Positions 3,670 to 13,434 of a stretch of DNA of 30,578 nt are shown here, in pieces. The stretch comes from a virus (taxonomy: Duplodnaviria > Caudoviricetes). Positions within the stretch are counted from its first letter, which is position 1. Every line of letters starts with the position of its first letter. The stretch is from positions 1 through 30,578 of IMG/VR virus record IMGVR_UViG_3300024335_000660; one strand, written 5' to 3'. Position numbers and translations under genes: made by a program. The notes beneath the pieces were generated by a model, which did no database searches, was not told where the DNA came from, and was given only the letters and a program-made list of their open reading frames with translations.

Positions 3670-3753
3670 TGGTACCCGTGATCGGACTCGAACCGATACG
3701 CTGTGAAGCGAGAGATTTTAAGTCTCTTGTGTCTACCATTCCACCACACGGGC
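3670..3753 (-). tRNA. tRNA-Leu (anticodon TAA)
   Basis: GCCCGTG acceptor arm, AGAGA-CT-TAA-AA-TCTCT anticodon arm, long variable arm, GGTTCGAGTCC T-arm, encoded CCA. Confidence 0.95.
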
Positions 3754-3770
3754 ACTCTATTCTATAATTC

Positions 3771-3940
3771 TCGTGTATGTGAGGGGAGTTCTCAACACAG
3801 GGTAATTCCTGCTCCGCCCATCCTCACTAACGACAAACACATGCCGGCATACTTGCATCGAGCCTTTTGTTGTGACTGCAACATCACTTCTCGTCATATG
3901 GGATTTGCTGACCCATACTAGTTGGTGCTACCCAACACGT
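3771..3940 (-). ncRNA. Putative structured non-coding RNA of unknown family
   Basis: Intergenic, about 49% GC by hand count, with consecutive hairpins at 3921-3936, 3897-3917, 3868-3883, 3831-3860 and 3779-3827. Confidence 0.5.
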
Positions 3941-3944
3941 CTCT

Positions 3945-4232
3945 TTATTCTTGCTCTTTTGTTGGCAAGCATCCAAATACTACAGTTACTATTGTACCAA
4001 CGACTGGTATAATTAATCCTACTATCCACCAAAGACTGTTTCCAGTATCGCGAATTCGGCGTGCGGTAGTTGCTAGTGCATACCAAAGTACTGTGACCAT
4101 TACTATTAGTGAAAGCCATGGCATGGTTGCCAGTAATGCTTCTCCAATAATATATCCAAGGGTACCAATAATAATCATTGCCCAATATTGTGAACGGTTT
4201 GCAGTGCCGTCAAAGTTAAAATATTCTTTCAT
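3945..4232 (-). CDS. DUF805-family membrane protein
   Basis: FNFDGTANRSQYW, RRIRDTGNSLWW, three hydrophobic segments. Confidence 0.9.
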   Translation of the reverse strand: MKEYFNFDGTANRSQYWAMIIIGTLGYIIGEALLATMPWLSLIVMVTVLWYALATTARRIRDTGNSLWWIVGLIIPVVGTIVTVVFGCLPTKEQE

Positions 4233-6495: not shown

Positions 6496-6524
6496 ATTGT
6501 ACAACAATATATTAAGTATGTCAA
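6496..6524 (-). promoter_or_regulatory. sigma70-type (early) promoter
   Basis: TTGACA-N17-TACAAT. Confidence 0.8.
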
Positions 6525-13173: not shown

Positions 13174-13181
13174 TATTTATA
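13174..13181 (-). promoter_or_regulatory. T4-late-type promoter for the DUF1127 operon
   Basis: TATAAATA followed by a leader hairpin, GAAGCAA-TGG-TTGCTTC. Confidence 0.65.
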
Positions 13182-13274
13182 TCATAATAACACGAAAAAC
13201 CAGGGTTTACTACTGCTGTCTGCGTAGACTCGACATGCGTCTAGTGCAACTGTGCATATATGCGCAGCTCATAG

Positions 13275-13399
13275 AAAAACCCTGCTGCATTACTGCAACA
13301 GGGCCTATACTTCTCTTTTGTAGGTGAAGGTTAATACCAAGTCTTACTACATTGTATCCTAGGCCAACTTCATCGCCTGATAGTTAGTTTCCTAACTAT
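13275..13399 (-). ncRNA. Putative 125-nt small RNA
   Basis: Own promoter; ATAGTTAG-GAAA-CTAACTAT hairpin starting at the predicted +1; CCCTGTTGCA-GTAA-TGCAGCAGGG-TTTTT terminator; no credible ORF. Confidence 0.7.
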
Positions 13400-13405
13400 G
13401 TACTT

Positions 13406-13434
13406 AACATAGCATGTCTTAATCTATATGTCAA
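13406..13434 (-). promoter_or_regulatory. sigma70-type promoter of the sRNA
   Basis: TTGACA-N17-TATGTT with TGn. Confidence 0.75.

Follow-up and report, generated by a model that had tools for sequence, protein, structure and literature searches.

Orphan RNA genes within phage tRNA clusters have stood unexplained since RNAC (species 1) and RNAD (species 2) of phage T4, the role of both being stated as unknown (PMC3014915 and PMC9697503, in excerpt). Theta (minimal HDV-like) ribozymes start directly after tRNA 3′ ends in phages and form a double pseudoknot (PMC10879173, in excerpt), and GOLLD and ROOL are structured orphan RNAs that occur near tRNAs and in (pro)phages (PMC5737381, in excerpt). 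Marine T4-like cyanophages carry the structured manA and wcaG motifs, of a size class similar to that of the RNA described here (PMC2864571, in excerpt). T-box riboswitches combine a kink turn with a codon-like triplet in a loop (PMC4919913, in excerpt), and the type III antitoxin mimic (ToxI) of phage phiTE is a phage RNA restraining a host nuclease (PMC3475682, in excerpt).

The setting of the element analysed here, which lies in a 30,578-nt stretch of viral DNA (the window), is thus already known. What is new is its predicted fold, which showed the defining features of no known family among those tested. Like RNAC and RNAD, it is an orphan RNA gene inside a phage tRNA cluster, and the likeness is one of setting only, plus one local hairpin look-alike: RNAD starts with 5′ AGAA followed by a GUCGC-loop hairpin (4/4 aligned T4-type copies), which resembles our joiner and stem P3. 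RNAD is 119 nt long, consists of one hairpin and one long arm and ends in CCA, whereas our RNA has six predicted stems, pseudoknots and no conserved CCA. Models R1 and R2 built for our family gave no match to RNAC or RNAD with filters off, nor in the whole T4 genome. In 4 aligned copies of RNAD itself (L326:1054-1172, minus strand), a hairpin at the 5′ end and a block at the 3′ end are invariant and the middle varies; RNAD is matched by 735 phage records, many of which annotate a hypothetical protein or nothing at this site.

Our RNA differs from theta and HDV ribozymes in its length of ~165 nt, in two tandem pseudoknots each with an inserted hairpin instead of the nested HDV order, in a stem P6 that runs straight into the 3′ pseudoknot strand, in a first base that can be A, U or G, and in having no J4/2 C. 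GOLLD and ROOL are much longer, and our RNA has a different fold and no Rfam match to them. The manA and wcaG motifs lie in 5′ UTRs of metabolic genes, and our RNA has no Rfam match to them at E<=10. As in T-boxes, kink-turn geometry and a codon-like triplet in a loop are present, but there is no antiterminator or terminator, no conserved UGG (CCA-pairing) bulge and no regulated gene. ToxI-type antitoxin RNAs form a pseudoknot with an A-rich loop, and in type III antitoxin RNAs, repeats of 34-57 nt stand in tandem ahead of a toxin gene; our RNA, by contrast, is single copy, with neither tandem repeats nor an adjoining toxin gene. Candidates tried and rejected were tmRNA (ARAGORN and Rfam are silent on the element, and carrier record G001 has a separate tmRNA), Y RNA/YrlA (no YrlA match on the element, and a Ro60 (TROVE) gene in 0/5 records searched, all fragments) and RNase P RNA (no Rfam match). 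In RNase P RNA the P4 pseudoknot joins conserved regions I and V, whereas the A-rich joiner and AGUA hairpin of our RNA are 5 bases apart and unpaired with each other.

No publication naming this RNA was found in the literature available in part. The available part of PMC10690425 reports 8,495 unnamed RNA candidates from IMG/VR, and its accessible tables gave no match for family motifs or contig numbers; the family may be among these candidates, in which case its newness falls.

The locus and the family

A preliminary description had picked out a GC-rich element of about 170 nt immediately 5′ of tRNA-Leu, and this was borne out. G+C amounts to 84/170 bases against 35% for the whole window, making the element the second most GC-rich 170-base stretch there; the first (87) lies inside a coding gene. 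The locus holds the following features:

3670..3753, minus strand: tRNA-Leu(TAA), downstream neighbour (ARAGORN/Rfam)
3772..3941, minus strand: RNA gene, ~170 nt (157-221 nt in the family), ends placed at the limits of conservation
3945..4232, minus strand: upstream neighbour, a DUF805 membrane-protein gene that stops 3 bases short of the RNA
6496..6524, minus strand: sigma-70-type promoter match at 11/12 positions, a consensus match only

A gap of 19 bases separates the 3′ end of the element from tRNA-Leu(TAA) on the same strand, and a redoxin gene comes after this tRNA. The DUF805 gene is not conserved as a neighbour across the family. Within the window, no strong promoter lies directly upstream of the RNA and no terminator follows it on its strand. 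The closest strong promoter match is 2.6 kb upstream, at 6496..6524, and is predicted to start a long transcript with tRNA-Arg, the RNA and tRNA-Leu.

The window record is 30.6 kb and estimated to be 9% complete, implying a phage of jumbo size. A fuller carrier record, G001 (300 kb, 86% complete), has 17 of the 38 window ORFs of >=100 codons, a set that includes overlapping spurious frames. Its DNA polymerase is nearest to those of Sinorhizobium phage Phosso (52%) and Agrobacterium phage Atu_ph07 (46%), and it carries a two-piece alphaproteobacterial tmRNA (L339:4238-4573, minus strand) 3.3 kb from its RNA copy. Because of this tmRNA type and these polymerase relatives, the phage host is likely an alphaproteobacterium. 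G001 also holds a freshwater-2 RNA at a separate site (L350:2658-2743) and, ~1 kb upstream of its copy of our RNA, a gene like that for RNA polymerase omega (Rpb6; L339:1965-2219, minus strand).

When contigs from viruses, metagenomes and genomes were scanned for family patterns, ~90 distinct relatives turned up in the viral and metagenome sets; one distant copy came from a model search. A profile match was present in 231 of the first 325 loci; many fetched loci were the same contig more than once, and they were reduced to 79 distinct complete copies. Another 23 loci were set aside for truncation or an atypical 3′ end, 11 of which were recovered by hand. The metagenome scan gave at least 118 matches (~140 estimated), and one further variant came from the final pattern scan. 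Alignment A3 comprises 86 copies, with 56-85% identity to the window copy (median 75%); L092, L142, L240 and L016 were excluded for long insertions. Extra hairpins are inserted in or before the P6 arm at L016:2356-2546, L092:2416-2635 and L142:628-849, indicating that this arm tolerates large insertions. With model R1, the window copy scores 171 bits, the window being part of the model's training set.

The distant copy (58 bits, E ~1e-14) lies in G005 (342 kb, 92% complete) and in G007. It came from a model search of 4 records reached via the redoxin protein or chance pattern matches, 2/4 of which were positive. Anchoring on redoxin gave 7 loci with the element nearby in 1, and anchoring on DUF805 returned the same contig alone. 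One copy per record was found in 4/4 long records, and no locus had two profile matches. Searches by blastn with three different copies against 50,697 annotated phage records gave chance pieces or nothing, and nine further IMG/VR records gave no significant match to the model. Eight cultured jumbo phages, chosen among the 40 nearest by DNA polymerase, were searched together with T4; the best match, of 17 bits with broken alignments and no tRNA near, was taken as chance. A pattern scan of GTDB genomes gave 4 matches, none of them scored by the model, and the pattern would miss the distant type, so that absence from cellular genomes is weakly tested. Rfam 15 gave no match on the window element at gathering score or at E<=10, and none on the element in 15 further loci or on the distant copy.

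Family members keep close company with tRNA genes. A tRNA adjoins 62 of the 79 complete copies on one or both sides: the 3′ end of an upstream tRNA is within 15 bases in 48/79 (all at 0-8 bases; 47/79 at 0-3), and a downstream tRNA begins within 30 bases of the RNA 3′ end in 47/79. Any tRNA is present in 72/79 loci, the remaining seven, some of them short, having no tRNA call, and 288/288 tRNAs in these loci lie on the RNA's own strand. The neighbours vary, with 12 tRNA types upstream and 9 downstream, or protein genes instead, and the borders of conservation stay sharp and fixed though the flanking genes change. The top neighbouring protein cluster is a spurious frame over tRNAs, and the next, the commonest real family, occurs in 18/89 loci. 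The lack of a constant protein neighbour argues against both a cis-switch of one gene and a local protein-RNA cassette. The nearest tRNA to the distant copy in G005, tRNA-Ser(ACT), is 184 bases away, within a 20-kb stretch with 19 tRNA calls.

Borders that remain sharp as the context changes, covariation, the lack of a conserved frame and the lack of an Rfam match agree with the preliminary description's "unclassified phage ncRNA". We regard it as nearly certain, on this comparative evidence, that the element is a non-coding RNA gene, and by sequence comparison it is a member of an uncatalogued RNA family of marine jumbo phages with a covarying, pseudoknotted fold.

Fold and covariation

The fold is predicted to comprise six stems and a compact core with two pseudoknots. 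Its parts are listed below, position 1 of the model being window position 3940.

3921..3936, minus strand: stem P1 and loop 1 (model positions 5-9/16-20), 100% of cells paired, double changes at 3/4 pairs
3896..3918, minus strand: stem P2 and loop 2 (23-29/39-45), 97.7% paired, double changes at 3/7 pairs
3907..3909, minus strand: PK1 5′ strand, in loop 2 (32-34), 100% paired, double changes at 3/3 pairs
3872..3887, minus strand: stem P3 (GTGA/TCAC) and loop 3 (54-58/65-69), 95.3% paired
3864..3871, minus strand: A-rich joiner before the PK1 3′ strand, with four invariant A
3861..3863, minus strand: PK1 3′ strand (78-80), from mutual information, tree and pairing counts
3847..3856, minus strand: stem P4 (85-87/92-94), short, with an invariant AGUA loop (3850-3853)
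3831..3846, minus strand: stem P5 (95-99/106-110), 99.8% paired, double change at 1/5 pairs
3837-3840, minus strand: probable PK2 5′ strand, the P5 loop (101-104)
3779..3827, minus strand: P6 arm with a variable cap (114-119/157-162), double changes in 4/4 pairs tested
3813-3814 (GA), 3794-3796 (3-base bulge) and 3792-3793 (GA), minus strand: kink-turn geometry in P6
3775..3778, minus strand: probable PK2 3′ strand (163-166), 98.3% paired, one double change, in 3 copies

In a MAFFT alignment of the 86 copies that was not fitted to structure, 98.4% of cells pair in the final model, compared with 90.8% when shuffled and 23-48% when slid, a control that flatters the model because the model was derived from the same sequences. 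Double changes occur at 18/35 pairs, and 0/500 shuffles were as high; as the copies are related and apparently mosaic, such counts are no probabilities. Four L048-type rows, misaligned in P2 and P3, were counted as unpaired. Because G-U wobble dominated an initial scan of all pairs, mutual information was used instead: by its corrected value, 117-159 ranks first, 86-93 second, 33-79 third and 34-78 fifth. On an approximate tree from which the tested columns had been left out, coincident changes number ~6 for 33-79, ~5 for 34-78, ~7 for 86-93 and ~14 for 117-159, counts that the mosaic look of the RNA can inflate. RNAalifold, run on 30 diverse copies, returned the same nested stems.

The distant copy, which played no part in deriving the model, was compared by eye. 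P1, PK1 and the three inner pairs of P5 are all swapped in it with pairing kept; AGUA is also kept, PK2 has one mismatch in four, and there is no kink turn. PK1, whose middle pair occurs as four pair types in the alignment, is well-supported by these comparisons, and the A-rich joiner is presumably its minor-groove strand, as predicted from likeness to H-type pseudoknots. PK2 is probable, and its register is uncertain by two bases, since the RNA 3′ end alternates A and C and slides of −2 and +2 pair equally well. The closing pair of P4 is C-G in 75, A-U in 6 and G-C in 5 of the 86 copies. The two outer pairs of P5 compete with an extension of P4, positions 95-96 being able to pair with 109-110 or 81-82. 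The 5′ leader may pair with the joiner before P6, a pairing seen in 96.5% of cells that varies on one side only and has two competitors. A GC kiss between loops 1 and 3 is possible, with two pairs in 86/86 copies and a single compensating copy. Unpaired positions make up many of the invariant bases in alignment A3, though invariance at CTAGTA, ATGA, GATG and AGTAT was partly forced by the search patterns; the AGUA loop is kept in L016, L019 and the distant copy, which were found without fixing it.

In a kink turn, tandem G.A/A.G pairs are set off from a canonical stem by a 3-base bulge. This geometry is present in P6 in 83/86 copies, and control bulge lengths of 0, 1, 2, 4, 5 and 6 gave 7, 64, 7, 5, 26 and 7 copies. 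As it is missing from 3/86 copies and the distant copy, the P6 kink turn, judged by its sequence geometry, is not the core function. For the 3′ arm, the idea of an interdigitated T-loop or L1-stalk mimic gave way to the kink turn after this geometry count, and likenesses to RNase P conserved regions, hairpin ribozyme loop A, SRP Alu and group II domain V were contradicted by the alignment.

The stems listed in the preliminary description can all be read in the sequence; about half proved wrong across the family, and the pseudoknots had been missed. Three (GTTGG/CCAAC, TATGGG/CCCATA and GTGAG/CTCAC) are kept with compensatory changes over the 86 copies. Four fail: TGTTG/CAACA pairs in 71.4% of cells and is replaced by P3, CGTGT/ACACG pairs in 67%, GGAG/CTCC in 60% and the ATGCCGGCAT hairpin in 76%. 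TGACGA/TCGTTA, at 89%, is tenable for its inner 3-4 pairs, and CAGG/CCTG belongs to the variable cap. The recurrence of AGCA in loops is no family feature; loops 1 and 3 have a GC in common, and the second loop forms half of a pseudoknot. Nor does the element fold better than shuffled sequence, a result that the preliminary description had named among its grounds for refutation. The element alone has an MFE of −49.3 kcal/mol and a z of −0.28, 75/200 shuffles folding equally well, and 22 of the 86 aligned copies sampled for folding have a median z of −0.47, with z < −2 in 3/22. The rejection suggested by folding energy is overturned by the covariation seen across the family.

Proposed release and action, and competing readings

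We tentatively propose a trans-acting RNA that is freed by tRNA processing and binds a host protein as a decoy or ligand, and we put the probability of this reading at about 0.35. The preliminary description had considered both release by RNase P cleavage at the tRNA 5′ end and a protein sponge; the former would fit the context, and the latter is our favoured guess as well. The RNA, with no promoter or terminator of its own, would be co-transcribed inside a tRNA operon; 3′ trimming of the previous tRNA would set its 5′ end and RNase P at the next tRNA its 3′ end. The freed RNA would be stable and would act in trans on a host protein of the translation/tRNA or anti-phage machinery. The lack of its own promoter, terminator, fixed downstream gene or partner gene, taken together with the packing against tRNAs, makes trans action and release by tRNA processing the simplest account. 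The upstream tRNA side would matter as much as the downstream one, given the 48/79 copies that start 0-8 bases after a tRNA 3′ end. A host-protein partner is favoured because tRNA operons hold phage counter-defence RNAs and kink turns are protein-binding sites (PMC4919913, in excerpt). Defences that cut tRNAs are countered by tRNAs of phages (PMC10264068, PMC11555353 and PMC11464382, in excerpt), and an RNA with which a phage mimics an antitoxin has been described (PMC3475682, in excerpt). The many invariant unpaired bases are also what a binding surface would show. An L7Ae gene was found in 0/5 records searched, all fragments. Against this reading, dense invariant joiners and pseudoknots suit a ribozyme or ligand pocket equally well, and genes in these clusters normally lie close against tRNAs.

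Matches to the family occur in 24 sequencing runs, 22 of them recorded as RNA and mostly from seawater; contigs from RNA libraries carry no strand, ends or level and may hold DNA. Comparing the window with four runs, we found a contig with no differences that bridges DUF805 and the 5′ part of the RNA, and one with two differences that bridges its 3′ part, tRNA-Leu and the redoxin gene. A similar comparison of locus L053 with four runs gave one contig covering the whole copy and both flanks. These bridging contigs fit co-transcription, and they may be DNA.

A somewhat unlikely reading is a new catalytic or tRNA-handling RNA class that docks on the neighbouring tRNA and cuts, matures or shields it, with a fold unrelated to RNase P, T-boxes and HDV-like ribozymes. 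Rather unlikely is a new ribozyme class that cuts itself or a tRNA precursor, releasing the tRNA 3′ end and playing the part of theta ribozymes in gut phages. The 47/79 copies that begin 0-3 bases past a tRNA would suit it, as would the weak free energy and the compact core of several pseudoknots, in which unpaired bases are invariant, and theta ribozymes are themselves tRNA-linked nested double pseudoknots (PMC10879173, in excerpt). However, the strand order is unlike the HDV fold, no conserved C precedes the 3′ pseudoknot strand, and 31/79 copies, the window included, have no tRNA call directly upstream (some loci being short). The RNA-library contigs also cross the 5′ border and one whole copy, although these may be DNA or uncut precursor.

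An aptamer for a small molecule without an expression platform, such as a nucleotide-signal sponge, is quite improbable, and a riboswitch less likely still. We take the size, the two hairpin-inserted pseudoknots, the A-rich joiner and the kink turn to resemble those of riboswitch aptamers, and G001 is rich in nucleotide and cofactor genes. These points are set against a tRNA downstream in 47/79 copies, the lack of a terminator on the RNA's strand and of a consistent downstream gene, and the absence of any riboswitch match in Rfam for the window, the distant copy and 15 other loci.

It is more doubtful still that the AGUA loop pairs with U33 and the ACU/GCU anticodon of a serine tRNA in the manner of a T-box specifier, escorting or shielding it. 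AGU is the codon for anticodon ACU, the directly upstream tRNA is Ser(ACT) in 24/79 copies and Ser(GCT) in 4/79, and Ser(ACT) is nearest to the distant copy. Ser(ACT) is also present in 14/33 carrier records (8/8 of those >=98 kb) compared with 1/17 other records. This pattern was noticed after the fact, however, and the carriers are one lineage. tRNA-Gly(TCC), which has no codon match, is equally linked on the downstream side (21/28 loci holding it, against 24/35 for Ser(ACT)). AGT is the most used serine codon of G001 (2364 against 1348 AGC), which explains a Ser(ACT) tRNA by itself, and phage XaC1 has Ser(ACT) with no detectable RNA copy. Flanking A-U pairs in 86/86 copies leave a tetraloop poorly placed for four pairs, and there is no CCA-pairing bulge.

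A structural RNA that multimerises or is packaged, GOLLD/ROOL-like or linked to virions late in infection, is very improbable. GOLLD and ROOL likewise occur near tRNAs and in prophages (PMC5737381, in excerpt), the late RNAs RNAC and RNAD have no known role (PMC9697503, in excerpt), and the GC pairs of loops 1 and 3 could form between molecules; against this, docking motifs are not repeated and there is no match to the GOLLD or ROOL Rfam models. Our RNA is also far below GOLLD and ROOL in size. A small protein gene or neutral GC-rich spacer is largely refuted: a 46-codon ORF exists and is open throughout the element in 35/79 copies, and z is −0.28, but a stop falls inside the element in 44/79, the conserved core sits in three frames (49, 23 and 7 copies), the ORF has no Pfam match, and changes track base pairs, not codons.

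The proposed trans-acting, protein-binding RNA and its ribozyme alternative bear on whether, in addition to tRNAs, these operons in phages supply folded RNAs for binding proteins of host defence or translation, or else a ribozyme of a new kind. The natural variation of the family is enough to fix a model of tertiary contacts (PK1, probable PK2, the possible kiss and the kink turn), and the RNA is short enough for direct transcription and probing and occurs in seawater RNA libraries.

Other elements in the clusters and the window

tRNA-Ser with anticodon ACT is common, in 35/79 loci (among them L009, L010, L084 and L412:1228-1317), and is also found in phage XaC1; bacterial tRNAs seldom have A at the wobble position. 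In the G005 cluster, one tRNA is called with anticodon CTA and there is an odd 96-base tRNA-like call. Around the distant copy (L432:10050-10700, minus strand), ~180 bases downstream and 250 upstream are without a convincing ORF or Rfam match and possibly hold further RNAs. A second conserved non-coding element of ~87 bases occurs in the same tRNA clusters, often directly after the RNA (L140:1335-1421, minus strand; L160:1661-1750, plus strand; L157, L019, L172, L180 and L185). It has a closing stem, a T-arm-like hairpin and a CCA end, and ARAGORN and Rfam make no call on it. Elsewhere in the window, an intergenic stretch at 13180-13420 (minus strand), which follows a TTGACA promoter-like site, has several hairpins, one of them terminator-like, and a z of −2.64; it is a possible small RNA.
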